Shown: positions 2,202 to 64,000 of the stretch, piece after piece | Layout of the letters: each line of letters begins with the position of its first letter | How positions within the stretch are numbered: the stretch's first letter is position 1 | Virus record (IMG/VR): IMGVR_UViG_3300045110_000277 | Span: 22,080-86,079 of that record | Reading direction: 5' to 3' (one strand) | Origin: a virus | DNA: 64,000 bases | The notes under the pieces: generated by a model | Seen by the model: the letters and a program-made list of their open reading frames with translations, nothing else | Databases searched by the model: none | Told to the model about the DNA's origin: nothing | Made by a program: the position numbers and the translations under genes

Positions 2202-2657
2202 ATGGCCGCCAACCAGAGCCCGATCTTCACTCTGACGCCGAAGATCGGTCGCAAGGCGTGGACCTCCTCGACGACGGCGAACACCAAGTCCGACGGCGCG
2301 GGCACCATCGGCACCGACATCCTGCTGGTGTTCACCGGCGGCACCAACGGATCGTTCCTGAACCGGGTGCGGCTGTCCCCGTACGCCTCGGCCGCGGGCA
2401 CCGCGACCACCCCGACCGTCGCGCGGCTGTACCTGTCGACGCAGACCTCCTCGACGACAACGGCCGCTGACACCTCGCTGTTCGCGGAGGCGGCCTGCCC
2501 GGCCCAGACCGCTGACCAGGCGACCACGGCGACGAACTTCATCGAGATCCCGTGCGGCTTCTACATCCCGTCCACGATCAGCCTGCTGGTGTCGATGCAC
2601 CACGCCGCAGCTGCCAACACCGGCTGGCAGTTCATCGCCTTCTACGGCGACTACTGA
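2202..2657 (+). CDS. Putative fibre-associated virion protein
   Basis: MAANxSPIF start and GDY end, a recurrent small structural family; RBS AGGAG. Confidence 0.6.
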   Translation: MAANQSPIFTLTPKIGRKAWTSSTTANTKSDGAGTIGTDILLVFTGGTNGSFLNRVRLSPYASAAGTATTPTVARLYLSTQTSSTTTAADTSLFAEAACPAQTADQATTATNFIEIPCGFYIPSTISLLVSMHHAAAANTGWQFIAFYGDY

Positions 2658-2663
2658 GCCGCC

Positions 2664-3584
2664 GTGTTCGAGGACTACCTGGACGTTCTCGGCCAGTCCC
2701 GGGCGGACGTGCAGCTGTTCAAGGCCGGGGCCAACGCGCAGACGTGGCGCAAGCCCCGCGGCGCGCAGATGCTGCACATCGTGCTGTTCACCGCTGGTGG
2801 CGGTGGCGGCGGTGGGATGACCGGCCTGACGGCGACGGTGCGCGGTGGTGGCGGTGGCGGCGGCGGCGGCGCGATCATCCAGGCGATCATCCCGCTGTAC
2901 TACCTGCCTGACGTGCTGTACCTGTCGGTGCCCCGTGGTGGCGCGGGTGGCGCGGCGACGGTGAACGGCTCGGCAGGCAGCATCCAGTCGCTGGTGTTGA
3001 CCAACAACGTGACGCCCGCGGCTCCGGCGGGAAGCGACATCGTGCTCGGTGGCCAGGCCGGCTTCCTCGGCGCCGGGGGTACGGCCGGCTCTACGGGCGG
3101 CTCGGCGTCCGGTGGCTCGGGTGCGGGCGCTTCCAACGCCAACGGCGGCTGGGCGGTGATGGGCATCCGCAGCTTCCTGGCTGGCGGGAACGGCGGCGCG
3201 GGCGGTGTGGTCGGTGGCGGTGCGGGCACGGGCCTCACCATCGCCGGTGCGTCGCCGTACCGGATCTTCGGCGGCGCTGGCGGGGCGACAACGCCCGCTG
3301 GCAACAACGACTTCGCCGGCGGCGGCTTCACCGGCGCGGGCCTGTTCCCCAGCACGGCAGGCGGCACGGCCGGTGGCGGCAAGGGCGACGGGTCCCCGGC
3401 CTACTTCAACGGCTCCCTGGTCGTCTACGGCGGCACGGGTGGCGGCTCAGCGGGCGCTGGGACCGGCGGCGACGGTCAGGACGGTGGGTACCCGGGCGGC
3501 GGTGGTGGCGGCGGTGGCGGCGGCATCACGGGCGGCAAGGGCGGCAAGGGCGGCGACGGGCTCACGATAATGATTGCCTGGTGA
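2664..3584 (+). CDS. Glycine-rich virion protein, paralogue 1
   Basis: Poly-Gly blocks; ends GGDGLxxxxW. Confidence 0.8.
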   Translation: MFEDYLDVLGQSRADVQLFKAGANAQTWRKPRGAQMLHIVLFTAGGGGGGGMTGLTATVRGGGGGGGGGAIIQAIIPLYYLPDVLYLSVPRGGAGGAATVNGSAGSIQSLVLTNNVTPAAPAGSDIVLGGQAGFLGAGGTAGSTGGSASGGSGAGASNANGGWAVMGIRSFLAGGNGGAGGVVGGGAGTGLTIAGASPYRIFGGAGGATTPAGNNDFAGGGFTGAGLFPSTAGGTAGGGKGDGSPAYFNGSLVVYGGTGGGSAGAGTGGDGQDGGYPGGGGGGGGGGITGGKGGKGGDGLTIMIAW

Positions 3585-3588
3585 GCTG

Positions 3589-4527
3589 ATGTTCCTCGAC
3601 GCGATGGACGCACCGCCGTTCAACCTCGGCGCCAGCGACCTGCAGGTGTTCAAGGCGCAGGCGCCGGGCACCCAGGTCTGGCAACAGTGGCAGCGCCGAC
3701 GCGGCGACACCATGTGCATGATCACCTGCCTGGGCGCGGGCGGCTCTGGTGCGGGCGGCATGACCGGTGCGACCGGCTCGGTCCGCGGTGGCGGTGGCGG
3801 TGGTGGCAGCGGAGCGGTCGCCCGGCTGCTCATCCCGGTCTTCTTCCTGCCCGACACGCTGTTCATCAACGTGGGCAAGGGCGGGGCCGCGGTCGCCGCG
3901 GTTGCCGCGGGGAACCCGGGCAGTCTCAGCTACGTCAGCGTGGCCCCGAACACCACCGCGACCAACATCCTGCTGCAGTCCGGCGCGGCGGCAGCTACGG
4001 CGGCCACGGCGGGCTCCACGGGCGGCTCGGCGGCTGGCGGGGCGGCGGAGACCATCTCCACCATCGCGCTGTGCCTGCTGGCGAACCTGGGCATCGTGGA
4101 GTTCGCGGCCGGGCGGGCGGGGGCCATCGGCGGGGTGGTCGGCGGCGGGGCGGGCACCGCGATCACGTGGAACGCGGCGACGTACCCGATCCAGTCCGGC
4201 TCGGGTGGCGGGACCACGCCGGCGGCCAACAGCCAGTTCGCCGGCGGGGCCCAGACCGGCTCCGGCTTCACGCTGCCAACGGTCGCTGGCGGCGCGTCTG
4301 GTGGCAACCCGGGCGACGGCACCATGGGCCCGCCGAACAACGGGGTCGGTGGGTGGGCCTCCTACGGCGGCGTCGGTGGTGGCACCGGCGGGGCCGCCGG
4401 TCAGGTCGGTGGCAAGGGTGCAGACGCCGCGGGGTACGGCGGTGGCGGTGGCGGTGGAGGCGGTGGCGTGACCGGCGGTGGCGGTGGGGCCGGAGGCGAC
4501 GGCCTGGTCACCATCGTCAGCTGGTAG
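3589..4527 (+). CDS. Glycine-rich virion protein, paralogue 2
   Basis: Same architecture as 2664 and 4563; ATG at 3589. Confidence 0.8.
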   Translation: MFLDAMDAPPFNLGASDLQVFKAQAPGTQVWQQWQRRRGDTMCMITCLGAGGSGAGGMTGATGSVRGGGGGGGSGAVARLLIPVFFLPDTLFINVGKGGAAVAAVAAGNPGSLSYVSVAPNTTATNILLQSGAAAATAATAGSTGGSAAGGAAETISTIALCLLANLGIVEFAAGRAGAIGGVVGGGAGTAITWNAATYPIQSGSGGGTTPAANSQFAGGAQTGSGFTLPTVAGGASGGNPGDGTMGPPNNGVGGWASYGGVGGGTGGAAGQVGGKGADAAGYGGGGGGGGGGVTGGGGGAGGDGLVTIVSW

Positions 4528-4528
4528 C

Positions 4529-4555
4529 CAGATGACCCTTCCGCCGAGCCGATAG
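4529..4555 (+). promoter_or_regulatory. Candidate sigma28/WhiG-type late promoter (possibly leaderless)
   Basis: CAGA-N15-GCCGATAG, 7 nt before ATG 4563. Confidence 0.6.
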
Positions 4556-4562
4556 GACGAGC

Positions 4563-5462
4563 ATGTACCAGGACCACTTCGGCTTCCCGCCGCCAGCTCC
4601 TGGGGACACGCAGGTCTTCCGCGCCGGACCGATCTGGGACACCTGGCACAAGCGTCGCGGCGACACGATGCTGTACATCGTCGCCTTCGGCTCGGCCGGC
4701 GGCGGGGGCGGCGGCAAGACCAACGCCATCGGCAACGCGCGAGGCGGCGGCGGCGGGGGCGGCTCGGGCGCCATCATGCGCCTGCTCATCCCGCTCTACC
4801 TGGTGCCCGACATCCTGTACGTCTTCGTCGGCCGGGGCGGCGCCGGTGGCACGCCGGGTAACCCGGGCTCCTCGGGCGACTTCAGCCTGGTCAGCTTCCA
4901 GCCGTCCACCTCGCTCGACGTGCTGGTCAAGACCGGGAACGCGGTGGCCGGCGGCGGGGCGGCCGGCACGACCGGCTCCAACGCTGGTGGCTCGGCCGGC
5001 ACCATCGCCACGCTGGCGAACTGCCCGATGGCCGCCTTCGGCATGGCCAACTTCATCGCCGGGAAGATCGGTGCGGCGTCCGGCGCGAGCACCGGTGCGG
5101 CCGGGCTCAACAACACCATCGCCACCACGCACCAGCTGAACGGCGGTGCGGGCGGCGGCACCACGCCCACCGGCAACACCGAGTTCGCGGGCGGCGACCA
5201 GACCGGGGCGGGCATCTTCCCGACGGTCACCGGCGGCGCGGGTGGCGGCAACCCTGGGCCCGGGGCGGGCGGACTGCTGCTGGACCGCCCGTTCATGTCC
5301 TACGGCGGCTCAGGCGGTGGCACGGGCGGCGCGGCAGCGACCGTTGGCGGCCGTGGTGGAAACGGTGCCGTCGGCTCCGGCGGTGGCGGCGGTGGCGGGG
5401 GTGTCACCGGCGGGACCGGTGGCTCCGGCGGCGACGGCCTCGTGCTGATGACGAGCTGGTGA
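4563..5462 (+). CDS. Glycine-rich virion protein, paralogue 3
   Basis: Same architecture as the two preceding genes. Confidence 0.8.
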   Translation: MYQDHFGFPPPAPGDTQVFRAGPIWDTWHKRRGDTMLYIVAFGSAGGGGGGKTNAIGNARGGGGGGGSGAIMRLLIPLYLVPDILYVFVGRGGAGGTPGNPGSSGDFSLVSFQPSTSLDVLVKTGNAVAGGGAAGTTGSNAGGSAGTIATLANCPMAAFGMANFIAGKIGAASGASTGAAGLNNTIATTHQLNGGAGGGTTPTGNTEFAGGDQTGAGIFPTVTGGAGGGNPGPGAGGLLLDRPFMSYGGSGGGTGGAAATVGGRGGNGAVGSGGGGGGGGVTGGTGGSGGDGLVLMTSW

Positions 5463-5465
5463 GCC

Positions 5466-7355
5466 GTGGCCTTCGGCGGCGATAGCGCCTTCTCCGAGTA
5501 CCCGTTCGCCGCACAGGCGGCCGGGCAGCAGCTCACGCGCACCACTTCTGACGACGCGACGGTCAGCGACTCGGTGGCGCGCTCTGTGGTCCTCGCGCGC
5601 ACTACGTCGGACGCGGTGGGCTCCATCGCGGCCGTTCCAGCCAACGCGACGATCATCATGGGCGCGGCTGGCTGGATTACCAGCGGCACCGGCAACAGCC
5701 ACCCCATCGTGATGACCATTCCGGCCGGGGCCCGGGTCAACGACCGGGTGTACATGGCGTTCGGCGAGAACGGTGGCGTCGCCATTCCCGTTCCGACCGG
5801 GTGGCGGCCGATCCTGGTTCCCGCTGCGTACAACGGCAACATCCTCAGCTGCGCCATCTTCGAGCGGGACGCGCTGCTCGGGGTGGGCGAGGCTGGCTCC
5901 ACGGTCACCGTCGACATCGGCCAGAGCCGGGTGCAGATCGGCGTGATCTTCACCAGCGACGGCGACCTGGACGCGGTGAGCGCGGTCAGCAACCAGACCT
6001 CGCTGCAGTCCACGAACACGGTGCCCGCGGTCACCCCGGTCACTGACAACGCGCTGCTGCTGGAGATCGCGTTCCTGGTCTCCACCACGAACGCCCAGAC
6101 GTACACGAGCACGCCACCGACCGGCTACAGCACGCTGTTCGACCAATGCACCTCGAACGCGGGCGCGAACAAGAACATCGAGATCTTCATCGCCAGCAAG
6201 CAGCTGTCCGGCCAGAAGACGATCTCGCAGGGTCCGACCTTCTCCACCCCGTCGGTGCAGACAGAATCGGTGGTGGTGTCGCTGACGTTGACCCAGGCCG
6301 CCAAGGAGCGGGCGGTCGCCAACGTCGGCCGGTTCGCCTCGACCAGCGACAACGCCACGGTCAGCGAGACGGCGGTGCGCTCCGCCGAGGTGTACGCCCG
6401 CACGACCGCCGACAGCGTGCCCGTCAGCGAGAGCCTGGCCCGTACTGCACAGGTGTTCAGCCGCACCACGAGTGACTCGGTGGTGGTCTCCGAGGCGCTG
6501 TCCAGCCACGTCACGGTGGCCCGCACCACGGCCGACTCCGTGGTGGTCAGCGAGGCCGCGGTCCGCTCCGCTGACAACTACTCGCGCACGGCCTCCGAGA
6601 CTGCCACGGTCTCCGAGACGGTTGCCCGGTCGCTGCTGCAGGCTCGCGCCCCGTCGGACGCCGTGTCCGTCTCGGACACCACCACCCGCGTGGTCGCCCA
6701 GTCCCGTACTACCTCGGACAACGCCACGGTCTCCGACGTGGCCTCCGGCGTCATCGGCGGCAACCTGCACCTCACGCGCACCGCGTCGGACTCGATCAGC
6801 ACCAGCGAGTCGGTGGCCCGGATCGTCGTCCTGCCCCGCGCGGTGGCCGCTTCGGTGCCCGTCAGCGAGAGCCTGGCCCGCACCGCGCAGGTCTTCGCCC
6901 GGTCCACCTCGGACAGCGTGGCCGTCGTCGAGTCGGCGACCCGCTCGGCCGAGGTCTTCGCTCGCACGAGCTCGGACAGCGTGCCGGTCTCGGATGCCAA
7001 CGCTCGTTCGCAGCATGACTTCAGGTCGACTGGGGAGTCGGTCCCGGTCAGTGAGGCGGCGACTCGGGCTTCCCAGGCGTTCGCCCGGACGACGGCCGAC
7101 ACCGCCGTGGGAGCCGCCTCGGTCTCCTCGCACACCGCCGCGTCGCGCACCACGTCGGACTCGTTCGCGGTCGGCACCAGCACGCCCACCCCGGTGTACG
7201 TGCCGTCCATCAAGGATCCGGAGATCGAGGAGGCCGGCGCCCTGGTTGGCGTCACCACCACGGGCGTGGTGCTCGGCGTGACCACCACGAGCGTGCTGCT
7301 CGCATCGCCCACGCTCGGCGCCGATATCGACCCCATCGACACGATGACTCGCTGA
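5466..7355 (+). CDS. Repeat-containing fibre/stalk protein
   Basis: About 16 copies of a ~19-aa RTTSDSVxVSExxxR repeat around a globular insert. Confidence 0.75.
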   Translation: MAFGGDSAFSEYPFAAQAAGQQLTRTTSDDATVSDSVARSVVLARTTSDAVGSIAAVPANATIIMGAAGWITSGTGNSHPIVMTIPAGARVNDRVYMAFGENGGVAIPVPTGWRPILVPAAYNGNILSCAIFERDALLGVGEAGSTVTVDIGQSRVQIGVIFTSDGDLDAVSAVSNQTSLQSTNTVPAVTPVTDNALLLEIAFLVSTTNAQTYTSTPPTGYSTLFDQCTSNAGANKNIEIFIASKQLSGQKTISQGPTFSTPSVQTESVVVSLTLTQAAKERAVANVGRFASTSDNATVSETAVRSAEVYARTTADSVPVSESLARTAQVFSRTTSDSVVVSEALSSHVTVARTTADSVVVSEAAVRSADNYSRTASETATVSETVARSLLQARAPSDAVSVSDTTTRVVAQSRTTSDNATVSDVASGVIGGNLHLTRTASDSISTSESVARIVVLPRAVAASVPVSESLARTAQVFARSTSDSVAVVESATRSAEVFARTSSDSVPVSDANARSQHDFRSTGESVPVSEAATRASQAFARTTADTAVGAASVSSHTAASRTTSDSFAVGTSTPTPVYVPSIKDPEIEEAGALVGVTTTGVVLGVTTTSVLLASPTLGADIDPIDTMTR

Positions 7356-9343: not shown

Positions 9344-9630
9344 GCGCAGGCAGCTACGCGCAGAAGGTGGCGGTCGAGCAGCGCAAGCGGCTCGTCGGCT
9401 CGGTCATGGCCATGGTCGAGCGGGACGTGTACCCGCACCTGCCAGCGGACGTTCGCACCGCCTTCAGGAACAAGCTGCTGCAGTCCGTCGGGGTCTACCA
9501 CGACTTCGTGCTGGACAGCCTGAAGGCCGCCATCGAGGACAGCGACACCACGCTGAACGAGGCGGTCATCGAGGCCCTCGGTGAGCTGGCCAACGAGACC
9601 CGGATGCTGCGCGAGCTGAGGGAGGGCTGA
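9340..9630 (+). CDS. Hypothetical protein
   Basis: GTG overlapping the previous stop; codon bias. Confidence 0.7.
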   Translation: MSAGSYAQKVAVEQRKRLVGSVMAMVERDVYPHLPADVRTAFRNKLLQSVGVYHDFVLDSLKAAIEDSDTTLNEAVIEALGELANETRMLRELREG

Positions 9631-12158: not shown

Positions 12159-12283
12159 TCTCGACGACGGCCGGGTGCGACCGGCCGTTGGCACCACCAC
12201 TGGAACTGGATGAGCGGCCGGGCCCCTTTGAAGCTGGGGGCTCGGCCGCTGCCCTAAGGGGCTGGACCCGAGACAGGAGAGCC

Positions 12284-13371: not shown

Positions 13372-13419
13372 CGGAGCAGACGCCAACGACCGTTGGCACC
13401 GAGACGAGGAGGTGACTGG

Positions 13420-16400
13420 GTGGCCGAGAACGTCGAAATCAACGTAACCGCCAACGCCTCGTCGCTCGGCACGGCTGCCGCGGACATCGAGCGCCTCGAC
13501 GCCGCGCTCGCGCTGCTGGGCAGCCGGTCGTCCGCCGGGGCCGCGGTCGCCGCCACCCTCGGTGAGATCGCCAGCGGGGCGGTCACCGCCACCGGCTTCC
13601 TGGAGGAGTTCCTCGCCACCGCCGAGAGCGGGTCCGCTGGGGCAGCCTCGGCGCTGCGCAGCCTCATCACCCAGGTCGAGGCGTACGTGGGCGCCCAGGA
13701 GGCCGCAGCGGTCGCCCAGCAGGCTGCCAATGGCGAGGCGGCGACCGCCTACGAGCGGGTCGTGCTGGGCGCTGGGGCGGCCGTACAGGCCACGGAGGCC
13801 CAGACCGCAGCGGTGACCCTGCTGACGGCCGCGAACGCGGAGCTGGCCAAGGTCGAGGCGCAGGTCTCCATCGAGCGCGAGCGGGCCGCGGCCAAGGCGT
13901 CCATCGCGGCGGCCCCGAACATCGGCACGAACGTCGCCGGCAACGCGGTCGGCTCTGCGGCCGGCATCGGCGGGTTCGTCGCCGGCCAGGACAGCCGCTT
14001 GAAGGACGCCGAGGCCCGCGCGATCCAGCTGCTCAACGAGCGCGGCGTCGCGGACGCCCAGCTGATCCTCTACACCACGGCGCTGGGCAAGGCCGCCCTG
14101 GCGGCGGTGGCCACCGAGGAAGCCTTCGTCGACATCCAGTCCAAGGACAACGCGGCCACCCAGACGCTGATCCGGTCCAAGAGCGCGGCGGTCGCAGCCC
14201 AGGACAAGCTGAACATCCTGGCCGCCGAGGACGTGTCCAGCGGCGGGCGCGGCCGGGGCGGCGGCAACTTCTCTGGGCTGTCGGACAGCTCCGGTGGCAG
14301 CTTCCTGGGCCAGCTCGGGACCACGTTCAAGTACATCGCCTTCTACCAGGTGTTCCAGCTGCTGCTGACCACGTTCAAGGACAGCGTGGAGGCGTCGGCC
14401 AACTACGACCGCGCGGTCACGAACCTGGGCATCGCGCTCGCGGGCACCGACGTGGACGCGGGCAACCTGGCGAACAGCCTGGGCCAGATCGGCACCCGGG
14501 CCGGCATCGCGGCGTCCGAGGCGGTCGCGGCCGGCACGCAGTACCGCCGGGCGTTCCCCTCCGCCGACCCGACGCAGGCGGCGCTGGCCGGCGCGAGCAC
14601 CATCTCGACGCTGGCCGTGATCGGTGACCCGAAGACGGCGCAGGCCAACAGCGCCGACGTGCTCGCGGTGCTGGCCAACTACAACCTCGGGATCGAGGGC
14701 ACCACCCGGGTGCTGGACGCGGCCACCGCTGCCGCGCAGGCGTTCGGGCTGTCCGGCCCCAACGACGTGCTGCCGGGCCTGGCCCAGATCTCCGACGTGG
14801 GCGCCGCGCAGGGCTTCTCGCCCGAGGAGCTGGCCGCCACCGTCGCCACCATCGTGCAGCGCACGTCGGAGACCAGTCAGGCCGCGGCCGGGGAGCTGCA
14901 GCGATTCCTGGGCCGTGAGGGCGGCAACGCCGTCCAGCAGGTCTTCGCCAGCTTCGGGGTCGACACGACCAAGAAGTTCGCCGACGAGCTGCGCCAGTTC
15001 GAGCCCATCTTCGAGCAGCTGACCGCGGCCCAGCAGCAGGCGGTCGTCTCCGAGCTGGGCGGTGGCCGGGCGGCCCCGGCCGTGCAGGCCGTGCTCGACA
15101 CGTACAAGCAGATCGAGCAGGTCGCCACCGCCGACAACGCGGGCAAGGCGCAGGAGCAGGAGATCGCCCGCCTGGCCGACCTGAAGGGCCTGCTGACCCA
15201 GATCGGCGGTGACTTCCAGGAGCTGTACAAGGACATCGGCTCGTCCGGCATCGGGGTCATCTTCGGGGTTGCCCTGCAGGAGCTGGACCCGCTGCTCAAG
15301 GGCGTCGATGACCTGCTCCAGCTGTGGAACGAGATGCCCGGCCCGATCAAGCAGATCACCGCGGCGGTCGTCGAGCTGTCGGTGGCGCTGGCGCTGCTCG
15401 GCAAGGGTGAGGGCGTCGGCCTGCTTGGGTCCATCGGCGCCGGTGGCTCCAAGGTGCTCGGCAAGCTCGGGCTGGGTGGGCTGCTCGGCGGCGGTGGCGA
15501 GGCGGCGGGACTCGCTGGAGCTGCGGGCGGCGACCTGTCAACGGTCATTGGCACCTCCGAGATCGGCGCTGCCACCGGTGGCCTGGAGGGCGTGGCGGCC
15601 GGTGGCGGGGCGGTGGCCACGCTGGTGCCGTACATCGCCCCGGCCATCGTCGGGCTGATCGCGCTCGGCGCGTGGAAGGACATCAACGACAAGACGAACA
15701 AGGCGATTGCCGACGCGGGCACCGCCAAGCAGCTGGACTCGGCGGACTCCGCTGCGGCGTACAAGGACCTGGCGTCGAAGTTCGCCACCGCCAAGACCGA
15801 GGTGCCGACCGGCTTCGTCACGTCGCTGTTCGGCAAGGGCGTCGAGAACGACCAGCTGATCGCCGACCTCGACAAGCTGCAGAAGTTCGCCGAGGCGCAG
15901 TCCAAGGCGTACTCCGACGCGGCAGCCGCACGGGGCACCGGCACGGCGTTCACCAACAACGGCGAGGTCGACTTCCAGGGCCTGTTCACCTCGCTGCACG
16001 GCTCGGGCCAGTCCAGCGCGGAGATGCTGAAGCAGCTCACCGACGCGATCTTCGGGCTGGGCGGTGCGGCGGGCACCACGGCGCAGCGACTGGTCAACGA
16101 CAAGGGCACCATCGACGCGCTCGCTCGCGGTGCGACGGCGACCGGTTTCGACAAGCTGTTCAATGAGCGGCTGCCGATCCCCGGTGGCCCGGTGGTCGCC
16201 TTCGACGGCATCGGCAACCCGGCCATCCCCGGCTCGCAGTCGGTGCAGTCGCCCAGCCTGAACGACCAGAACTCCCAGGCGCAGAAGCTGTTCGAGGCTG
16301 GCGTCAACGAGTCGATCACCAAGGCTGCCTCGACGCTGCCGGCCGGTGCGCCGCTGAACGCCAGCACCATCGCGGCGATGAAGGCGGCGGCCGACAAGTT

Positions 16401-26149: not shown

Positions 26150-26235
26150 GACCTCTGGCCGGTGTCAGATTCGCCCCGGCTGGGGACGATGGACACATGA
26201 GATGCGAACGCTCGTTGGCGGGGAGGAACTGGGTC

Positions 26236-37613: not shown

Positions 37614-37809
37614 CGCCGGAGGGCGTCCGCAGCAAGGAGAACGCGCGAACGCTCGTTCGTGAGGCAGCCGTGGAGCTGGAGCTGGCCATCCACTACGCCG
37701 AGCGGCACCCGTCAGACCCGTCCGGGTCGCATGACCTGGACTACCGCCAGGACAACTTCGGTGAGGCGCTCGACTGCTACGTGCGCTTCGTGACGCAGGG
37801 AGTAACCAC

Positions 37810-46749: not shown

Positions 46750-47460
46750 TCAGCTCCTCTCTGCCGCCTGGGCCTGGTCCGCGAAGCAGGTCCAGGTGCC
46801 GTCGTCGTTCTGATCTGCGTTCTCGGTGGTGACGGCGATGCCGCACACCTTGCACACGTCGTCGGTGCCCTCCCCGCCCGTATCCGCATCCTGCACGGCC
46901 GAAGCGGTGAGGTCGGAGTCTTGGGCGGGGAGGGAGTCCTCGGCGGGCTGGGCTGGAGCTGACCGGTCGAACCTGTCAACGACCGTTGGCGGCAGGTCCT
47001 TCTTCGGCGCTACGTGGCCAGACTCCTCGCGCCACTGTTGCACCGAGTGCGGCTCGGTCGGCCCTTCCGGGCAGCGGCAGAGCCTGATGTGCATCATGCA
47101 CTTCTCGCACGTCGTCCAGCCGATGACCAGCGGGGCCTTGTGGCCGGGCACGTCGTACAGGATCGAGAGCATTGTGTTCGCGTCCCGGAAGGTGTACGAG
47201 CTCTTGAGCTGCTCGCGCAGGTCGATGCGCACCGACTCCTCGACCTGAGGGTCCATCGACGCCCGCTCCGCGGACAGCCGGGATGCACCGACCAGTGGGT
47301 CTCGGATGTCCGCGTGCGTCACGGTGGCGAGCACGTCGTCCATCTCCTTGGCCATGGCGCGCAGCTTGCCCATCACCTTGGACTGGTTCAGGTCGACCTG
47401 CCCTGCCTTGAAGTCGTACATCTCCAGCTGGTCGAGCAGCTCCGTGAGCTGACCTGCCAT
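46750..47460 (-). CDS. Hypothetical protein with Cys clusters
   Basis: CEKC...CRC and CKVC...C. Confidence 0.7.
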   Translation of the reverse strand: MAGQLTELLDQLEMYDFKAGQVDLNQSKVMGKLRAMAKEMDDVLATVTHADIRDPLVGASRLSAERASMDPQVEESVRIDLREQLKSSYTFRDANTMLSILYDVPGHKAPLVIGWTTCEKCMMHIRLCRCPEGPTEPHSVQQWREESGHVAPKKDLPPTVVDRFDRSAPAQPAEDSLPAQDSDLTASAVQDADTGGEGTDDVCKVCGIAVTTENADQNDDGTWTCFADQAQAAERS

Positions 47461-50652: not shown

Positions 50653-51206
50653 CGGGCGCCCTCCATGGCCATGTGCAGCACGTCCTCGACGAACTCCAGC
50701 TGACCGTCCGCCTTGAGAACGGACGTTCGCAGCGTCTCCAGCTGCTCCCGGAGGCCGTTGCGGACCTGGAACGCCTGCGCCTGCTCCTCCTGGGTGCCGT
50801 ACGCCAGCCGGCGCACCCGGTCCACCTCGCCGGAGAAGTCGAGGAACACGTTGGCGACGGCCTGCTCGCGGGTGACGCTGATCGGCTTGGCACCGGCGTT
50901 GATCCCGGCGCTCTCCAGCAGGTCACGGGCGAACGAGTCGATCTTCTGCTTGCCGTCCCCGGCCCGCTCCGAGTAGCCCTTGTGCCGCTTCTCGTACAGC
51001 TTCCGGTCGATGGCGGCCTGCGCCTCGATCTCGTTGCCGAACACGGCCACCTGGTTCTGGCCCTTGGAGCCGCGCCGTCCCCACTGGAACAGGACGCGCA
51101 CGTCGGTGCTCTCGTCGTCCTCGATCAGGTAGGCCCGGTAGAACTTGTCGCTGTTGACGCCGGGGTCCTGGTAGCTGACCTGCTCGACGGTGCCGTGGTA
51201 CGTCAT
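50649..51206 (-). CDS. WGR-domain protein
   Basis: NSDKFY...QWGRRGSKGQ...EKRHKGY. Confidence 0.85.
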   Translation of the reverse strand: MTYHGTVEQVSYQDPGVNSDKFYRAYLIEDDESTDVRVLFQWGRRGSKGQNQVAVFGNEIEAQAAIDRKLYEKRHKGYSERAGDGKQKIDSFARDLLESAGINAGAKPISVTREQAVANVFLDFSGEVDRVRRLAYGTQEEQAQAFQVRNGLREQLETLRTSVLKADGQLEFVEDVLHMAMEGAR

Positions 51207-51841
51207 GCGTCCCTCTCTCTCACGTCCTGGAAGGTGATCTCGTCCTCGATCATGTTCAGGGACTCGACCTCGTTCTCGTCCTTGGCGATGGCCTCACGGG
51301 CTGCTCGCCTGGCCGACGCCTCGTCCGGCCCCTCCACGTCGATGCGGATGGTGTCGACCTGCCGGCGGGTGCCGTAGACGGACCACCTGCGAACGACCGT
51401 TGGCGTCTCGACCAGCCCGGCCTCCCGCAGCTTCTCGATGCTCGCTGCGGGCTCCGCGTCGTGGTCGCCACCCCACCACCACTCGGCCACCTCGTGCTGC
51501 CAGCCGTCGGGCGTCAGCGTGATCGGGTAGCCGCAGCCGCAGAACGTGCGCGGGAAGGTGTCGGGGTCCGCCTCGGGCTCGGGCGTCACCCACGCCTCGG
51601 CCTCAGATGTCATAGCTCAGCAGCCCCCGTCCCTGCCAATACTCGTTGCGCACCAAGGCGGATGCCAGGGCGAGCTGGTCGGCCAGGTTCAGCAGCCGGC
51701 GGTTGACCTCGGCCGCTCCCGGCTTGCGCTCCAACGACTTGTCGTCGATGGTCGAGCCGTCCAGGCGCCGCGTCTCGTTCACGCAGTCGCCGAGGATCTC
51801 CTGGACGCGCTCCAGGTCGACGATCTCCTTCGTGCTGGCCA

Positions 51842-53298: not shown

Positions 53299-53745
53299 TC
53301 ACGGCTGCGTCGCCAGCAGGGTCCAGGAGCACTCGCTGTTGACGCTCAGCTTCACCAGCCCGGCGCTGCCCTGCGTGGTGTCCTTGCCGGCCTTGCCCAG
53401 CTCATTGGCCAGGATGTTGAAGTTGTCGCCCTCGTCGGTGACGATGAAGTTGCCGGACCCGCCGAACGCCTTGCAGTTGTACGTGTAGTGCAGCGTCCAG
53501 TCGTCGGTCGCGGTGAACGACTTGAGGTTCTTGATCCCGTTGCCGTGGACCGACAGCAGGTTCACGATCTTGGTCGCCGGGACGATGGACGTGGCCGGGG
53601 TGCTGGCCTGGGTGCTGGCCGGCGTTGGTGCGTCGACCGGTGAACTGGCCGGGATCGGAGCGCCGGTTGGCGCCGAGGCGACCGTGCAGCCGGTGATGCC
53701 AACGAGCGTTGACACGACCACCGCTGCGAGCTTGAGCTTGTGCAT
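53299..53745 (-). CDS. Lipoprotein
   Basis: MHKLKLAAVVVSTLVGITGC lipobox; Pro/Thr linker. Confidence 0.8.
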   Translation of the reverse strand: MHKLKLAAVVVSTLVGITGCTVASAPTGAPIPASSPVDAPTPASTQASTPATSIVPATKIVNLLSVHGNGIKNLKSFTATDDWTLHYTYNCKAFGGSGNFIVTDEGDNFNILANELGKAGKDTTQGSAGLVKLSVNSECSWTLLATQP

Positions 53746-55357: not shown

Positions 55358-55812
55358 CGTTGCTCACCTCCTCATCGTGTACCGGGCATGGGACGAGCGC
55401 GTCGCACAAGCAGTCCTCGTCCTTGTTGCAGGTGCAGGAGCCGTCGATCCAGTCGCCACCACAGTCGAGGCAGCAGGCTGCGTCCGGTCCGCTGTGGCCC
55501 GCCATGAGCGAGCAGATGGTGCCGGCCATGAAGTCCTGGCCGCACAGCACCCGGTTGCGGTAGTCCTCGTAGTGCATCGCCCCGCAGTTGTCGCCGACCT
55601 TGTGCTCGATGCCGTCCTCGCCGAAGTGCCGGTAGCCACGCATGGCCTGCAAACGCCCGTTGGCGTCCAGCCAGGCGTCCGCCTCAGCCTGCGAGCTGAA
55701 CGCCGGGATGCTCACGAGAGCACCTTGACCACGACGACGGCGGCGACAGCCCAGACGGCTGCGCAGCCCGCGAGGGTGGCGACCCAGACGAGCAAGCCCT
55801 TGGTGACGCGCT

Positions 55813-57506: not shown

Positions 57507-57555
57507 GCAAGCACCTCCGTTGAGTGCGGTGTTGATGCGAACGCCCGTTGGCGTC

Positions 57556-58485: not shown

Positions 58486-59327
58486 GCACTCACCTTGGCC
58501 TTCCTGGCCGGTTTGGCCTGCGCTGCCTGGGCCTGCTCGACGGCTGCTGCCAGCTGGGCCATGAGGTCCACGCCGCCAGCGGGCGTTGGCGTCCTGCCCT
58601 CGGACTTGGGACGCTCGCCGACGATGCCCGCGACCGCCTCCTTGCTGGCGATCAGGTCAGCCAGCGCAGCGGCGTAGGTGTCGGCGTACGTGGCCGGGTC
58701 GAACGGCTGCATCATCATCGGCAGCAGCAGGTCCACCTGGGCCTGCATCGGCGCCGGGATGGGTGGGATCATCGGCTCGACGATGGCGATGTCCTCGGTG
58801 CGGTACTGCTGCTCCATCACCAGCGCGTCGCCGAACGTGCCGAACCGGAACAGGCTGGCACGGCTGGTCGGCGTCCACAGGCCCAGCAGCACGATCTCCG
58901 GGTGCCGGGTGATGGTGTCGTGGAGCATCGCGTACGCCTGGGTCTGCGCCGGGTCGCTGGGCTGGAGCGCGTAGATCGAGCCGCCGGGCAGGATCTTGCC
59001 CTCGACGCCCTCGACCGGGTGCGGAGTGAGGCCGATGACCTTCTTGGTGGCGCCGAGCGTCGCGCTCTTGGCCTCGGCCACCTCGTCCTGCTCGACCACC
59101 ACGAACTGCTCGCCGACCAGCTTGGCCTTCTTGATGCTGGTGTAGGGCACCTCGTCGCCGGACGACTGGCACACGCGCTTCTGGTTGATGGTGGCCGGTG
59201 CGTGCTCGTGGCCACAGCCGCCCGTGCAGACCTGCTTGAGCGACTCCTCCTTGCGTACTGCGGTGTCCACGTCGGCGATCATGGTGACCATGCCGAGCTG
59301 GACGACGATGCCCTTGCGGAACGCCAT
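58482..59327 (-). CDS. ku: Ku-like DNA end-binding protein
   Basis: QLGMVTM...INQKRVC...EVPYTSIKKA...FVVV..DEV; AYAML; FDP..YADTY; VDLMAQL. Confidence 0.82.
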   Translation of the reverse strand: MAFRKGIVVQLGMVTMIADVDTAVRKEESLKQVCTGGCGHEHAPATINQKRVCQSSGDEVPYTSIKKAKLVGEQFVVVEQDEVAEAKSATLGATKKVIGLTPHPVEGVEGKILPGGSIYALQPSDPAQTQAYAMLHDTITRHPEIVLLGLWTPTSRASLFRFGTFGDALVMEQQYRTEDIAIVEPMIPPIPAPMQAQVDLLLPMMMQPFDPATYADTYAAALADLIASKEAVAGIVGERPKSEGRTPTPAGGVDLMAQLAAAVEQAQAAQAKPARKAKVSA

Positions 59328-59756: not shown

Positions 59757-60614
59757 TCATGCGTCGGCCTCCTTCTTGGCCTTGCGGGTCTCGTGGTCGA
59801 CGCGCAGCACCACGCGCCACGCGGTTGTGCCCAGCGGTCGCCGGCCACCCTTGGTCGCCACCGGCCCGGTGATGAGGCGCTGGCGGAAGTAGTCACGCAG
59901 CGCACGCCTCTCGGCGTCCAGCCCCACGCCCATCCGGGCGTACCCAGCGTCGTAGACCGCAGCCTGCACCAGCCCCACGACCCACTCCCGGTTGATCAGG
60001 TGGTTGATCAGGTGCTGGGTGCTGCCCAGCTGGTCACCGACCGTGGTGGTGTGATTCACCGGCCTCACGCACATCACACAGTCGGTGGTCACGGGCGCCA
60101 CTCCGAGCCGAGCGTCGAACGCGCCGTACTCCTTGACGTAGGCCGTGATCAGCTTGGTGATCTTGGCGTTGTGGATGTCCTGCATCTTGCGGAGGGGGTC
60201 CGACAGCCCGCCCGACTTGACCTGCCAACGACCGTTGGCGTCCCGCTCGAACGTGATCCCCTCGTCGAAGCACATCGGCTCATGCCAGTCCGCGCCGGTC
60301 TCGGGCGAGTAGGTGAAGTAGTGGACCACCCACCGTCCGCGGTCGCTGTTGAGCCGCAGGTCCTGCGGGGTGTGGCCGTTGATCCGCTCAGCGGTGGTCT
60401 GGGTGTACCAGCCACCGGCGCGCAGCATGATCGAGCCGTCGGGGAAGTAGGACACGATGGCCGTGTCGTGCAGCCTGACCACAATGATGTCCTCGGCCAG
60501 CCGCTCGACGTAGGTGTTGTTGGCCACCTTGCGGCTGGTGCGCGCCAGCAGCTGTGACGCAGGGCCGTCAGCGAGGAACGCCTCGGCCTCTTGGTACGTG
60601 CGGATCACGTGCAT
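59757..60614 (-). CDS. Hypothetical early protein
   Basis: GGGAGG RBS; VRLHDTAIV...GGWYTQTTAERIN. Confidence 0.75.
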   Translation of the reverse strand: MHVIRTYQEAEAFLADGPASQLLARTSRKVANNTYVERLAEDIIVVRLHDTAIVSYFPDGSIMLRAGGWYTQTTAERINGHTPQDLRLNSDRGRWVVHYFTYSPETGADWHEPMCFDEGITFERDANGRWQVKSGGLSDPLRKMQDIHNAKITKLITAYVKEYGAFDARLGVAPVTTDCVMCVRPVNHTTTVGDQLGSTQHLINHLINREWVVGLVQAAVYDAGYARMGVGLDAERRALRDYFRQRLITGPVATKGGRRPLGTTAWRVVLRVDHETRKAKKEADA

Positions 60615-60999: not shown

Positions 61000-61915
61000 T
61001 CAGCCGCGAGGGATGCCCTCGTGGAACAGCCAGTCGGTCGGCAGGTCGCCGCCGTGCGACAGGTGGGCGTCGAGCGCGGTGAACGTTTCGAGCCCGCGCT
61101 CCATGAGCAGGCCCAACGGCTGCCCGCTCTGCAATGCCACGTTGGCTTCCAGCACCAGCTGGCGTAGCTCAGCTAGTGCCTCATCAGGGTCCATCACTCC
61201 TCCTCGGCGAGCCTGTCTTCGATGTCCTCACCCTGAGCGATGGCCCACTCGCGCACCTTGGTGAGCATGTGGATCAGCCGGTCAGCGTCGGCCTCCAGCG
61301 AGGCCACGTCCTCGGCTGTGCTGGCGCTTGGCTCCATGATCGTGTTGATGGCGAAGATGCCAGCCGAGATGGCCTCGACCGCAGTCACCGGCTCGCCTGG
61401 TGCGTGCTCATCGCCGGTCACCGGGCACACCCAGCCGAACATGGAGGTCCAGACGATCTGCACCTCACCGCTCAGGGCCTTCTCGGGTACCTGGGCGATG
61501 GGGCAGCCGCAGTCCTTGCACCGGGTGCCGCTGGCCGGGTGGCTGCTCATGCGCCCTCCGTCTCCACGTGCAGGAAGTCCCGGCCGAACTGCCGTTCGTA
61601 GGCCACAGCCGCAGCAACGAGTGTTGGCGCGATGTCGCTCATCCGCTCAACGGCCGTTGGCAACATCGCCACGTACCGCTGGCAGATCACCTCGAACAGC
61701 CTGAGCCGCTCGGTGAACGACAGCAGGGTGCCGTCGTCGCGTGGCCCAGGGATGCTGGCGACGGACTGCTCGCCGTAGCCTCCGTGGGCGATGCTGATGC
61801 GTCCACCCAGCCACTCGCCGTTGTAGTTGAACGACAGCAGGTAGGTGGCGTCGTAGTAGGTGACGTGGGCGTGGAAGTCCGCGTCCGGGTGGTCGGTGGG
61901 GTCTTCGAGGCTCAT
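61000..61915 (-). CDS. Three small coupled early ORFs (61000-61197, 61194-61550, 61547-61915)
   Basis: Start/stop overlaps; 61000 ORF has the common MDPxxAL...LDxxL..GG.LP..W pattern. Confidence 0.65.
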
Positions 61916-62466
61916 GCGGGCATCACCTGAACCTCCAGCACGTGCGGGTCCTTGGCGACCTTGCGGGCCTCACGCTGGGCGATCCGCTCACCCAGGTAGG
62001 TCAGGCTGTCCCAGCGGACCAGGAGCCCGTCGCTCGTGCGCGTCCGGCAGTACAGCCGGAACCTCGCTTCGGCGCTCACGGGAGCGGTCGGTAGGAGACG
62101 ATCTCGCCCGGGTGGCGCTTGCAGATGGCCAGGACGGTGGACTGCTTGGCGACGATGGGCTTGCGCCGACCGACGAGGTACAGCTCGGCGTTCATGGGGG
62201 CCTCCAGTGGTCCCGTTGACCGTGGATGGATGGTAGTACCTTTGAGCAGATAGATCGAGGGTCCCGATAGCCGTCAGGCGAGGTGGTACCCACAGCATCC
62301 GAGGTTGTGCCGCATTGAGTCGGGTCAGCCCTCAGGCTGGTGGTCGGCGCGCGGCAGAGGCTGGCGGCCTCTTGTCGGAAACGAGTCCGTGCATCCTGCG
62401 TGGTGCTAGTTGGTGCGGTACAGCATTGGAGTGCCCTTCTGTGCTGCCCCGTTGGCAGACGGGAGC

Positions 62467-62509
62467 GTGCCCGGCCCAGGACTCGAACCTGGAGAACCCA
62501 CATCCGGGC
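62467..62509 (-). other. tRNA-like minihelix (acceptor stem + T arm only)
   Basis: GCCCGGA-TGTGGGTTCT-CCAGG TTCGAGT CCTGG-GCCGGGC-A. Confidence 0.6.
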
Positions 62510-62583
62510 TGCGAACGGCCGTTCGCGTCAGGCCATGTGCCGGCCGACGTACCACTCGGCGAGCCGGCACAGGTAGAACGCGA

Positions 62584-62757
62584 TCACTGGTCGGCGTTGG
62601 TGTAGACGGCCAGCAGGGCCAGGCCCCGCTCGACGCGCTGGCGGTCGGCCTGCTCGTCACGGCCGACCTTGCGACCACGGGTGAAGCACAGGCTGTGGCT
62701 GATGACCAGCACCACGACCAGGAGAGCCCACAGGCCGCTGATCTCGTGTCCGTGCAT
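62584..62757 (-). CDS. Small single-TM protein
   Basis: MHGHEISGLWALLVVVLVI; 57 aa. Confidence 0.55.
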   Translation of the reverse strand: MHGHEISGLWALLVVVLVISHSLCFTRGRKVGRDEQADRQRVERGLALLAVYTNADQ

Positions 62758-62928
62758 GGCTTCCGTCCCTTCGTCAGTCGAGCCCCGTTGGCTCGCATGG
62801 CTGCACGAACGCTGGCACCTCGCTGATGATGATGGGTGTCTCAGCGGGCAGGGCTCGTGCAGCCGTGCCAGCCCAGGGCTACCCGTCGCAGGGCAGCCCT
62901 GGGGGCTTGTTGCTCGTGCAGGTGCGGG

Positions 62929-63381
62929 CTACTGCCGGACGCTGGCGAGCAGGGCGTCGAGGTCGACCACCTTGCGGGTGGAGGACCCAGAACCGACCTC
63001 GGGCACGGTCGTGAGACCGACCTTGAGGTTCCAGTCGCCGCTCTTGGTGATGGAGATGCTCGCCGAGAGGTTGCGCACCTCACCGGTGGTCGGGTCGAAC
63101 GTGACGGGACCAGTGCCGTAGACGCGCGGACGCTGGTCCTCGGGCTTCACGCCGTCGGCCAGCACGCCGTCCTTGGTCATGCCGGTGAGGCCGTGGGTCA
63201 GGATGAAGTCCTGGCCCTCGTACTGGATGACGCTGGGCAGGGTGTCCGCCAGCGCCGGGATCGCCGATCCGAAGCCGGGGTTCGTGCCGAAGGCGAACCA
63301 GGTCTTGTCCTTGCCCTTGACCTGGCGCTCCTGCAGCGGGATGTCCTGGCCGCAGACCGTGATGATGCGGTATCCGAGCAT
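62929..63381 (-). CDS. Hypothetical early protein
   Basis: AGGAG RBS before ATG 63381; strong codon bias. Confidence 0.75.
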   Translation of the reverse strand: MLGYRIITVCGQDIPLQERQVKGKDKTWFAFGTNPGFGSAIPALADTLPSVIQYEGQDFILTHGLTGMTKDGVLADGVKPEDQRPRVYGTGPVTFDPTTGEVRNLSASISITKSGDWNLKVGLTTVPEVGSGSSTRKVVDLDALLASVRQ

Positions 63382-64000
63382 GGCTGTCTCCTGACAGCTC
63401 GTGCCGTCGGCCCGTTGCCGATGGCCCACCGACACCAACGCTCGTTGGCATCGGAAGGTCGTCATCTCCAGCATCGGGCACCGCTCGTGCGGATGGCAGT
63501 CCGCGCGGGTACTCGTGAATCGTGATGGCTGTGCCACTAGCAGCTGGCTAGGCCATCTTCATGCTCGTGGAGTCGGGCTGCCACCCTCGTCCACCACTGA
63601 CTACCTACCTTCGGCAGTCAGAAGCCTGTTGCGCTCAAGGAGTCGCTCGTAGTTCGCGCGCTCCTGCTTGGTCATTCGGACACGTACACCCCTGCGCTGG
63701 GCTCGTGCAGCCTTGCGCATGTGGCGCACGAAAGATCCCTGGGAGACCATCGGTCTCACCTCGCTCGTGTCGCTCGTGCTCGTTTGCGCTGAAGTTAGCG
63801 CGCGCTAAGCATTGTGACGCTGGGTCACCGGGCCGCTACGGCGGGTGACCGTTACCCTCCGCGCCCGCGTGGGCGCCGTGCGTGCGCGCCCGCACCCGTT
63901 GGGGCGCGTGCGTGCTCTCACCCTCACCCGCGCCCCGTGGGGCGACGCGCGACACCCTGGCGCCGTGCGCCGTGTCCGTTGCGTGGGGGAAGCGGGGCGC

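Follow-up and report, generated by a model that had tools for sequence, protein, structure and literature searches.

A dispersed palindrome under DNA-level selection in a lineage of uncultured phages, with a stand-alone LexA DNA-binding domain as candidate reader

The virus record IMGVR_UViG_3300045110_000277 (G000, locus L001; an actinobacterial phage of 86,079 bp, 68.4% G+C) carries a palindrome with the exact core AACGNNCGTT (AACG-N2-CGTT) at a spacing of one 16-22 bp copy per ~1 kb, coding sequence included. The stretch analyzed here (the window, 64,000 nt) covers bases 22080-86079 of the record. The palindromes are under DNA-level selection, and the array is lineage-wide and phage-specific. 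The sites are predicted, with high confidence, to be bound by a dimeric protein. The best candidate reader, at a probability of roughly 0.5 as judged from sequence, is a stand-alone LexA DNA-binding domain encoded by the phage (mini-LexA). Coordinates follow window numbering unless marked 'genome' or L001. Sites are given as 16-mers that start 3 nt before the core (Table 1).

Abundance and consensus of the palindrome

Exact cores were counted 43 times in the whole genome and 33 times in the window, where the mean over 100 dinucleotide shuffles was 0.38 and no shuffle exceeded 2. The symmetrised consensus spanned 22 bp, G.TGC[C/G]AACG-NN-CGTT[G/C]GCA.C (that is, G.TGCSAACGNNCGTTSGCA.C), with the 16-bp form GCSAACG-N2-CGTTSGC. 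A 22-bp matrix was built from this consensus and applied at a threshold of at least 12 bits, yielding 77 sites in the genome and 63 in the window (~1 expected in first-order Markov sequence). All 32 exact-core starts listed in the initial annotation were correctly placed, and one exact copy (41228-41243) had been overlooked. Of its 20 near-matches, 19 reached the threshold and the one at 61613 fell below it; eleven matrix sites lay beyond its list (12177, 15537, 16860, 17838, 20187, 25741, 28919, 32672, 39256, 40758 and 40917). Most copies were intragenic, as had been described (25 of 33 window cores). Per base, however, intergenic cores were ~6x denser over the whole genome, with 16 in 7.9 kb (the 9% that is non-coding) versus 27 in 78 kb of genes. 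The tape measure gene, in which no copy had been noticed, was free of exact cores but held three near-matches (15537, 16860 and 17838). A variant with 7-3-7 spacing, CCAACGTCCCGTTGG (L001:11440-11470), was located ~30 nt downstream of the genome-11408 site, at the start of the packaging-operon gene g11453.

Selection within genes

Genic cores were compared with shuffled versions of the coding sequence. Synonymous shuffling, in which every protein was kept, gave 0.65 cores (maximum 4) versus 27 observed, and shuffling of codon order gave 0.24. The DNA-level selection suggested in the initial annotation was thus borne out, and a composition or codon-usage artefact was ruled out by the dinucleotide and codon-aware shuffles together. 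The coincidence with rare codons was likewise found, the sites containing 35 of the 81 GTT codons of the genome (43%), 22 of 88 CCA, 7 of 72 CGA and 5 of 34 ACA. In all proteins together, 130 positions permit the core by synonymous choice, and 27 of these (21%) are filled. Because 109 of the 130 are x-T-x-V, the strong frame preference requires no peptide motif.

Evidence for a protein-binding site

The two arms of the palindrome were found to vary independently. At flank positions, agreement between arms matched independent draws in G000 and seven relatives (for example, 22 versus 21.9 expected of 43). Sites with mixed arms folded like shuffles (z -0.5 to +0.8). Since the arms are independent and mixed-arm sites have no extra folding, the palindrome is best explained as a site read by protein rather than as a hairpin, and a two-fold symmetric protein, as first proposed, fits the data.

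A role as RNA or DNA hairpins, serving as terminators, as processing sites or as translational stem-loops close ahead of ribosome-binding sites, would agree with the placement of several intergenic copies 3-50 nt past a stop codon and 9-33 nt ahead of the next start; good folding, at -9 to -11 kcal/mol, was found for perfectly symmetric copies only. This explanation is hardly tenable, given that arm complementarity is not selected, most copies are genic, and the sequence itself is conserved beyond mere pairing. No T-run follows the sites, and no Rfam family was matched in the window. Mobile palindromes of the REP or MITE type were also rejected: most copies lie in frame within genes of unchanged length, the arms are independent and folding is weak.

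Distribution in relatives and in an integrated prophage

Viral contigs were scanned with GCCAACGNNCGTTGGC. Matches were mostly single and attributable to chance, yet five contigs were rich in cores (46, 16, 8, 63 and 15 in the whole records; 0-3 with a reversed-pattern control). All five proved to be distant relatives, with structural proteins 25-78% identical and gene order the same. Use of the large terminase as query brought in ~30 related loci. Cores occurred at 0.14-0.73 per kb in 29 of 30 terminase-related loci, with control patterns near zero, and the density across ~30 related uncultured phage contigs was 0.14-1.0 per kb. A search of viral contigs for related loci with a mini-LexA alignment gave none that could be confirmed. 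No close relative was found among GenBank phages by megablast with 8 kb of the window or by tblastn with the primase-helicase.

An uncultured Actinomycetota genome (G014) contains one relative as an integrated prophage on a 622-kb contig, bordered by a tyrosine integrase on the right and by host transporter genes on the left. The prophage holds 48 cores in 46 kb, between positions 17,983 and 64,008; the 18 kb to its left contain none and the 76 kb to its right contain 2. The whole 5.5-Mb genome contains 98 cores, of which ~50 lie outside the prophage, which is the level of the control pattern (47). In the prophage region (G014:C5:17900-64100, loci L177-L180) the tyrosine integrase is encoded at 62557-63864 and a GH25 lysin at 18528-19523; the entire leftward arm of the 86-kb phage (Ku, ligase, MoxR/VWA, RuvB-like) is missing from it. 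No integrase was seen in G000 by tblastn with the prophage integrase as query, a profile search not having been made. G011, a complete 92.7-kb relative with 49% terminase identity, had no motif excess (3 cores versus 3 for the control), and a search of this genome for another dispersed palindrome found none.

A stand-alone LexA domain as candidate reader

Mini-LexA (Table 1) matched the LexA_DNA_bind family (PF01726) at E=6.5e-17 and 61.5 bits (cut-off 23.7), over profile positions 6-64 of 65. It aligned to solved LexA N-terminal domains (1lea and 3jso), with E values of 1e-9 to 4e-7 against LexA in the PDB. Peptidase_S24 (PF00717) had no match in G000, G004, G009, G012 or G013, and the 304-residue open reading frame (ORF) adjacent to mini-LexA had no Pfam match. 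Longer or fused LexA relatives of mini-LexA were not found, a negative that carries little weight. The nearest relatives of mini-LexA among 1.8 billion library proteins were mostly stand-alone domains of 70-100 residues, and many others were tandems of two to four domains. Seven of these (P0011, P0014, P0016, P0018-P0020 and P0033) consist of two, three or four LexA DNA-binding domains in one chain and lack a protease; such single-chain 'dimers' would suit palindromic or repeated sites. No literature specific to LexA-domain-only phage proteins or to the motif was found.

The short LexA domain accompanies the motif in most relatives: it was present in G002-G005, G012, G013, the prophage and 9 further loci, where its gene always precedes the terminase by a few kb. 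It was not detected in ~110 unrelated viral loci (0.95 Mb) or in the motif-free G011. The host of the G014 prophage encodes a normal full-length LexA, and its own lexA promoter carries TCGAAC-N4-GTTCGA boxes. The core AACGNNCGTT has the same AAC-N4-GTT register, and the motif flanks differ between phage groups whose mini-LexA recognition helices differ. Two copies of mini-LexA would occupy the two AACG arms in this register, which is that of Gram-positive and actinobacterial LexA. As it lacks the dimerisation and self-cleavage domain, mini-LexA would not respond to RecA and DNA damage.

An echo of LexA boxes had been remarked on in the initial annotation. The register and the phage-encoded domain agree with this remark, but the usual half-site is CAACG and not CGAAC, which sets most of the sites apart from host SOS boxes. 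In G000 the base before AAC is C in 62% and G in 36% of half-sites; G falls to 6-15% in G001-G004 and is 20% in G005. GAACG was present on both arms of only 6 G000 sites, and perfect CGAAC-N4-GTTCG was found at three (genome 17856, window 37645 and 62511).

Reading by host LexA, or by another conserved actinobacterial factor, would make the array an SOS-coupled switch or a titrating sponge, with mini-LexA as competitor or modulator. The shared register and the three perfect boxes are in its favor, the core is invariant across phages with differing candidate readers, and the subclade without a detectable LexA domain could do without a reader of its own. This is nonetheless decidedly unlikely: C is the prevailing base before AAC in G000, and G is a minority in G001-G005, whereas the two host boxes at the G014 lexA promoter have G; the phage flanks are lineage-specific, unlike TCG; the inner G/C is fixed in the phage motif and is not part of the host box; and the host chromosome outside the prophage carries the core only at control level.

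Several observations weigh against mini-LexA as the reader. Five loci (L157, L161, L162, L169 and L172; records G006-G010) retain the motif, G009 with 49 cores, and no LexA domain was found in this subclade by PF01726 or by two custom hidden Markov models (records 29-81% complete, G009 81%). A Pfam screen of 91 small G009 proteins returned WhiB, HTH_17/MerR and a zinc-finger protein, and no LexA domain. The syntenic slot of the subclade is occupied by a zinc-finger ORF and a VRR-NUC nuclease, where G000 has mini-LexA and a RusA-like resolvase. The 8-base core is invariant across the lineage while the recognition helix of mini-LexA varies widely, for which a more conserved reader is a simpler explanation. 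A LexA domain-only gene of 44% identity is present in mycobacteriophage Wildcat (Cluster V), which has no dispersed palindrome. In the absence of the dimerisation domain, binding by a LexA head is expected to be weak, as with fragments of E. coli LexA. The mini-LexA gene sits amid late and packaging genes, which is not the usual place of an immunity repressor. Finally, co-occurrence of motif and gene inside one lineage reflects shared ancestry and is not independent evidence. Confidence in mini-LexA was set at about one half on account of the subclade without LexA, the variable helix, Wildcat and the shared ancestry. The slot itself (L161:6883-7492, L162:7669-8142 and in G009) appears to have undergone a swap of a module consisting of a small DNA-binding protein and a junction nuclease.

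A different phage-encoded dimeric regulator may read the sites, with mini-LexA doing another job, for example at host SOS boxes; this is possible, though rather unlikely. Candidates would be an unrecognised small protein or an XRE-type helix-turn-helix protein (genome 12308-12859) encoded just upstream of the large terminase. Persistence of the motif in the subclade without a detectable LexA domain, the invariant core beside a variable mini-LexA helix, and the presence of the XRE-like gene in every relative examined all speak for such a regulator. The XRE-like gene is, however, also found in the motif-free G011, together with g11453, g54225 and the HNH and sigma-factor genes. HTH_17 was rejected as a universal reader, being missing from G000 and G004. 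Among proteins found with G000 queries, none had a presence/absence profile better than that of mini-LexA, and the shared AAC-N4-GTT register would have to be a coincidence.

Two other readers had been put forward in the initial annotation. A LuxR/NarL-type protein was rejected: none of five motif-bearing relatives tested, among them G004, a complete 163-kb genome with 63 cores, has a counterpart of the two GerE-type genes (34624-35063). A parS-like array is also without support, as no gene for ParB was found (ParB_N, PF02195, in five genomes of the lineage).

Site placement and possible function

Intragenic sites mostly move between relatives. A core was present at the orthologous position in 9 of 116 site-by-relative comparisons (1.0 expected). 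A near-constant occupied place was found 80-125 bp upstream of the scaffold/capsid operon, in nearly all relatives and often as a pair 37-41 bp apart. Other intergenic places filled in nearly every relative were upstream of the packaging operon, the large terminase and g22469. Paired sites lay upstream of the mini-LexA operon in six genomes, and in G000 two sites bracket a GCCGATT element there.

At the capsid operon, 14-33 nt separate the end of the palindrome from a conserved downstream GCCGA[TA]A/G element, which we take from its consensus to be the -10 of sigma-28/WhiG-type promoters. The G000 copy of this element, GCCGATAT (L001:19877-19935), lies left of the window, and the same junction was seen in ~25 related loci. 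The capsid-operon element is always preceded by one or two palindromes, and the phage encodes its own full sigma factor (40633-41379). A role of the palindrome as the -35 element of a sigma factor was rejected because its distance to the -10 varies over 14-33 nt. Among 414 sites in the genomes and loci scanned (some records overlap), 14% had a GCCGA[TA] element nearby versus 8% expected. This proportion, together with the fast turnover, points to two layers, a small one linked to promoters and a large one that is maintained in number but not in position.

We infer a two-layer scheme for the function of the sites. At the promoter-flanking minority (capsid, packaging and mini-LexA operons), occupancy would set promoter activity as in ordinary operator control, including autoregulation. 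The majority, at stop-to-start junctions and within genes, would have a density-dependent role, for example as stoperator-like roadblocks for silencing or as a mark of phage versus host DNA. A density-dependent role is suggested by the combination of a density held at 0.3-1 per kb, fast positional turnover and the sharp contrast between prophage and host. Roadblock silencing of the stoperator type is its best-known precedent, and the lineage includes a temperate member; a mark for or against a translocating machine would be the more novel alternative.

By analogy with Chi and KOPS, the array might instead be a self-mark or traffic signal for a translocating machine (a nuclease, an RecBCD/AdnAB-type helicase-nuclease, packaging or defence), although symmetric and independent of direction. 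The array ends sharply at the prophage borders, within which sites are ~50- to 80-fold denser than in host DNA; their density persists through the turnover of positions; most sites lie off promoters; and genes for recombination and end handling are numerous (Ku, ligase, RuvB-like, RusA, PD-(D/E)XK and exonuclease). Known signals of this kind, however, are short, asymmetric and read on one strand, whereas the palindrome is symmetric, spreads its information across 16-22 bp and leaves the central dinucleotide free, like the sites of dimeric repressors. With a conserved subset placed exactly at promoters and no candidate machine identified, such a signal is highly unlikely.

As a tentative and, on balance, unlikely extension of the mini-LexA reading, the phage lineage may have captured a LexA head and rewritten about a fifth of writable codon positions as its box, creating a genome-wide barcode, ~50-80x denser than in host DNA, that would tell phage from host DNA.

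Coordinates of the sites

Table 1. Palindromic sites in the window and the gene of the candidate reader. Sites have no strand (.). Bits, score on the 22-bp matrix; frame, frame in the enclosing ORF.
Feature	Position	Bits	Location	Frame	Remark
near-match GACAACGGCCGCTGAC	2456..2471	16.8	ORF 2202-2657(+)	2	
near-match GACAACGCCCGCTGGC	3287..3302	15.5	ORF 2664-3584(+)	2	
near-match GCCAACGGTCGCTGGC	4275..4290	19.7	ORF 3589-4527(+)	2	
near-match GGCAGCGACCGTTGGC	5333..5348	13.3	ORF 4563-5462(+)	2	
exact core GCCAACGCTCGTTCGC	6996..7011	29.3	ORF 5466-7355(+)	0	
near-match GCCAGCGGACGTTCGC	9441..9456	17.1	ORF 9340-9630(+)	2	
near-match GCGACCGGCCGTTGGC	12177..12192	19.5	intergenic		18 nt past stop codon
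exact core GCCAACGACCGTTGGC	13382..13397	28.3	intergenic		perfect 16-bp palindrome; 10 nt past stop, 22 nt before tape measure start
near-match GTCAACGGTCATTGGC	15537..15552	21.2	tape measure ORF 13420-17985(+)	2	
near-match GGGAACGCTCGCTGGT	16860..16875	13.4	tape measure ORF	2	
near-match GGCAACGGCCGCTGGC	17838..17853	14.1	tape measure ORF	2	
near-match GGCAGCGGCCGTTGGC	18708..18723	14.2	ORF 18520-20886(+)	2	
exact core GCGAACGCTCGTTCAG	19215..19230	22.6	ORF 18520-20886(+)	2	
near-match GCCAACGGGCCTTGTC	20187..20202	18.7	ORF 18520-20886(+)	2	
near-match GCCAACGCAGGTTGGC	20469..20484	19.4	ORF 18520-20886(+)	2	exact core at G001 orthologous place
near-match GCGACCGGTCGTTCGC	22240..22255	14.6	ORF 22187-24355(+)	2	
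exact core GACAACGACCGTTCGC	23257..23272	21.7	ORF 22187-24355(+)	2	
exact core GACAACGAACGTTGTC	23539..23554	21.5	ORF 22187-24355(+)	2	core kept at G012 orthologous place
near-match GCCAACGGCCCTTGTC	25741..25756	17.3	ORF 25601-26149(+)	2	
exact core GCGAACGCTCGTTGGC	26204..26219	26.0	intergenic		16 nt before next start, directly upstream of its ribosome-binding site
exact core GCCAACGGACGTTGCC	27074..27089	19.8	ORF 26748-27110(+)	2	
exact core GCCAACGCTCGTTGAC	27598..27613	26.1	366-nt intergenic gap		
near-match GCCAACGGGCGTCTGC	28919..28934	14.4	ORF 28871-29512(+)	0	
exact core GACAACGAGCGTTTGA	29129..29144	12.7	ORF 28871-29512(+)	0	
near-match GCCAACGACCGGTCGC	29709..29724	17.9	ORF 29509-29937(+)	2	
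near-match GTCAACGCCTGTTGGC	30160..30175	17.4	ORF 29937-30200(+)	1	
exact core GCCAACGCCCGTTGAC	31593..31608	26.4	AAA_24 ATPase ORF 30700-32139(+)	2	
near-match CGCAACGGTCCTTGGC	32672..32687	15.5	intergenic		33 nt before primase-helicase start
near-match GCGAACCATCGTTGAC	33071..33086	19.6	primase-helicase ORF	2	exact core at G001 orthologous place
near-match GACAGCGGTCGTTGGC	33431..33446	19.0	primase-helicase ORF	2	core at G001 orthologous place
near-match GTCAGCGACCGTTCGC	34394..34409	17.5	primase-helicase ORF	2	
near-match GCCGACGCCCGTTGGC	34641..34656	18.2	GerE-type ORF 34624-34851(+)	2	
exact core GCGAACGCTCGTTGGC	35400..35415	26.4	ORF 35060-35527(+)	1	core kept in G001
exact core GCCAACGGACGTTCGC	35888..35903	19.0	ORF 35706-36254(+)	2	
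exact core CACAACGACCGTTGCA	36102..36117	12.4	ORF 35706-36254(+)	0	
near-match GCCAACGCCCGCTGCC	37274..37289	16.5	ORF 37143-37613(+)	2	
exact core GCGAACGCTCGTTCGT	37645..37660	16.5	intergenic		9 nt before next start; also perfect CGAAC-N4-GTTCG (host SOS-box type)
near-match GCGAACGAGTGTTCGC	37976..37991	13.3	ORF 37810-38139(+)	1	
exact core GCCAACGAGCGTTGGC	38500..38515	26.6	ORF 38396-38737(+)	2	
near-match GCCAGCGGACGTTCGC	38957..38972	15.2	ORF 38892-39131(+)	2	
near-match GCCCACGGGCGTTCGC	39256..39271	15.3	ORF 39191-39592(+)	2	
exact core GCCAACGACCGTTCGC	39722..39737	26.4	intergenic		23 nt before next start
near-match GCCAGCGGCCGTTCGT	39960..39975	14.5	HNH ORF 39877-40251(+)	2	core at G009 orthologous place
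exact core GGGAACGGGCGTTGAC	40363..40378	20.0	ORF 40242-40472(+)	1	
near-match GCCAGCGTCCGTTGAG	40758..40773	12.7	sigma-factor ORF 40633-41379(+)	2	
near-match GCCAAGGTCCGTTCGC	40917..40932	17.6	sigma-factor ORF	2	
exact core GGCAACGGCCGTTGGC	41010..41025	21.3	sigma-factor ORF	2	core kept in G001
exact core GCGAACGCACGTTCAT	41228..41243	13.8	sigma-factor ORF	1	core 41231-41240; overlooked in the initial annotation
exact core GCCAACGGTCGTTCGC	41860..41875	28.3	exonuclease ORF 41693-42721(+)	2	
exact core GTCAACGAGCGTTGCC	44456..44471	24.6	ORF 43958-45073(-)	2	
exact core GCGAACGACCGTTGCC	45791..45806	22.7	ORF 45515-46036(-)	2	
exact core GTCAACGACCGTTGGC	46975..46990	24.8	ORF 46750-47460(-)	2	core kept in G013
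exact core GACAACGCCCGTTGGC	49467..49482	25.1	RuvB-like ORF 48888-49952(-)	2	15/16 bases identical at G001 orthologous place
exact core GAGAACGGACGTTCGC	50715..50730	21.3	WGR-domain ORF 50649-51206(-)	2	
exact core GCGAACGACCGTTGGC	51389..51404	26.4	ORF 51203-51589(-)	2	
exact core GCCAACGAGCGTTGAC	53698..53713	27.4	ORF 53299-53745(-)	2	
exact core GCAAACGCCCGTTGGC	55649..55664	22.7	ORF 55350-55715(-)	0	
exact core GCGAACGCCCGTTGGC	57537..57552	27.6	intergenic		3 nt past ligase stop, 30 nt before MoxR start
near-match GCCAGCGGGCGTTGGC	58575..58590	17.6	Ku ORF 58482-59327(-)	2	
exact core GCCAACGACCGTTGGC	60224..60239	27.1	ORF 59757-60614(-)	0	
exact core CTCAACGGCCGTTGGC	61646..61661	16.1	ORF 61547-61915(-)	2	
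exact core GCGAACGGCCGTTCGC	62511..62526	26.0	intergenic		also perfect CGAAC-N4-GTTCG
exact core ACCAACGCTCGTTGGC	63434..63449	26.2	intergenic		52 nt upstream of ORF 62929-63381(-), near right record end
mini-LexA, 76 residues	genome 9783-10013		~12 kb left of window		stand-alone LexA DNA-binding domain

Gene content of the phage

Gene calling by codon bias gave 131 ORFs covering 91% of the genome, directed rightward up to ~65 kb and leftward beyond. Recognised genes include a primase-helicase, an AAA_24 ATPase, a PD-(D/E)XK nuclease and a MoxR/VWA pair; a full sigma factor, two GerE-only proteins and an HNH endonuclease are also encoded. The leftward arm (all on the minus strand) encodes an Lsr2 protein with both domains (46033-46398), a RuvB-like AAA+ ATPase (48888-49952) and a WGR-domain protein (50649-51206), followed in the span 53759-57506 by a VWA protein (53759-55357) and a MoxR ATPase (56307-57506). 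An ATP-dependent DNA ligase (57556-58479, minus strand) adjoins a Ku homologue (58482-59327, minus strand), forming a self-contained end-joining pair; homologues are also present in G001, G009, G012 and G013. The gene for a C5 cytosine DNA methyltransferase (L001:1574-2527, plus strand) lies close to the left end, and most relatives do not share it. The motif contains two CpG and was considered as the target of this enzyme, but the methylase is not common to the relatives and no link was found.

Comparison with known systems

The NBS of Noc, the SBS of SlmA and the matS of MatP are chromosomal palindrome arrays for nucleoid-organising proteins. Like the phage array, they consist of tens of 12-16 bp palindromes for dimers, mostly within genes, and their distribution matters rather than gene regulation; unlike it, they occur in cells, at a 10-100 times lower density, and are linked to cell division. 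No homologue of Noc, SlmA or MatP was seen in the phage, no search aimed at them having been made. With the SOS box and LexA the array shares the LexA winged-helix domain of the candidate reader and the AAC-N4-GTT register of the G014 lexA-promoter box. It differs in that the candidate reader has no S24 protease/dimerisation domain, most phage half-sites have C before AAC with the inner G fixed, and the sites are not at DNA-damage genes and number 77 in one phage.

The stoperators of Cluster A phages (L5 gp71, Bxb1 gp69) are thought to silence by blocking elongation. As here, dozens of repressor sites lie along a temperate phage genome at comparable density, many of them between genes of one operon. 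A stoperator, however, is an asymmetric 13-mer that follows the direction of transcription and is recognised by an immunity repressor in monomeric form (PMC4351075), whereas the sites described here are two-fold symmetric, without orientation and mostly genic, and the candidate reader is unrelated. One relative of the present phage is an integrated prophage, and an immunity repressor was not found.

Cluster O mycobacteriophages carry 17-bp dyad repeats (in Corndog TGTTCGGNNNCCGAACA, TGTTCGG-N3-CCGAACA, 34 copies), for which a dimeric binder has been predicted and no function assigned (PMC4351075). Both groups have more than 30 copies of a 7-N-7 palindrome across an actinophage genome of 70-86 kb, and both carry Ku. 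In both, short intergenic gaps hold many of the copies and genes about a third or more, and most copies are off promoters; the 16 intergenic and 27 genic cores counted here form a mix of the Cluster O type. The two differ in sequence and spacer (7-2-7 here against 7-3-7 in Cluster O), and their CGAAC-like elements point in opposite directions. Corndog arms are invariant, whereas the copies here are degenerate (43 exact cores among 77 in all). The present lineage, in addition, is much deeper, has a named candidate reader and includes a temperate member, while Cluster O has no known lysogens.

Microbacterium phages of Cluster EG have unexplained 18-bp inverted repeats, GATCAACCNNGGTTGATC (PMC7302621). 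These share the CAAC-N4-GTTG register and a 2-bp centre with the palindrome, are kept across diverged relatives, and lie in short intergenic gaps 14-22 bp upstream of starts, as do many intergenic copies here. In contrast, only 8-10 EG copies are present, at one genome end and almost all at start codons, and their inner bases are CC..GG where CG..CG is found here.

Four features of the present array are new: how extensively it is written into coding sequence, how deep the lineage is, the contrast at the prophage edges and a named, LexA-derived candidate reader.

Significance

Since 2015, several actinophage clusters have been described as carrying dispersed palindromes, for which neither a reader nor a function was given. 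The lineage described here offers material for such work: a strong signal, ~30 diverged relatives, a relative that has neither motif nor gene and so serves as a natural negative control, a mark that ends at the prophage border, and a candidate reader that is small and easily purified. If mini-LexA binds the palindrome, the truncated head of an SOS repressor would have found a new use as a phage regulator that acts genome-wide and is insensitive to DNA damage, and the older repeats, so far unexplained, could then be tested by analogy. Should the sites in fact form a barcode, they could provide either roadblock silencing of a whole prophage independent of DNA damage, or the steering or blocking of a DNA-translocating machine. 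This would be a new use of the LexA domain and would supply a mechanism for repeats of the Cluster O and Cluster EG type. The array itself shows a DNA-level constraint on viral codon choice, and probably on amino-acid choice, that is relevant to recoding and to the design of synthetic phages.

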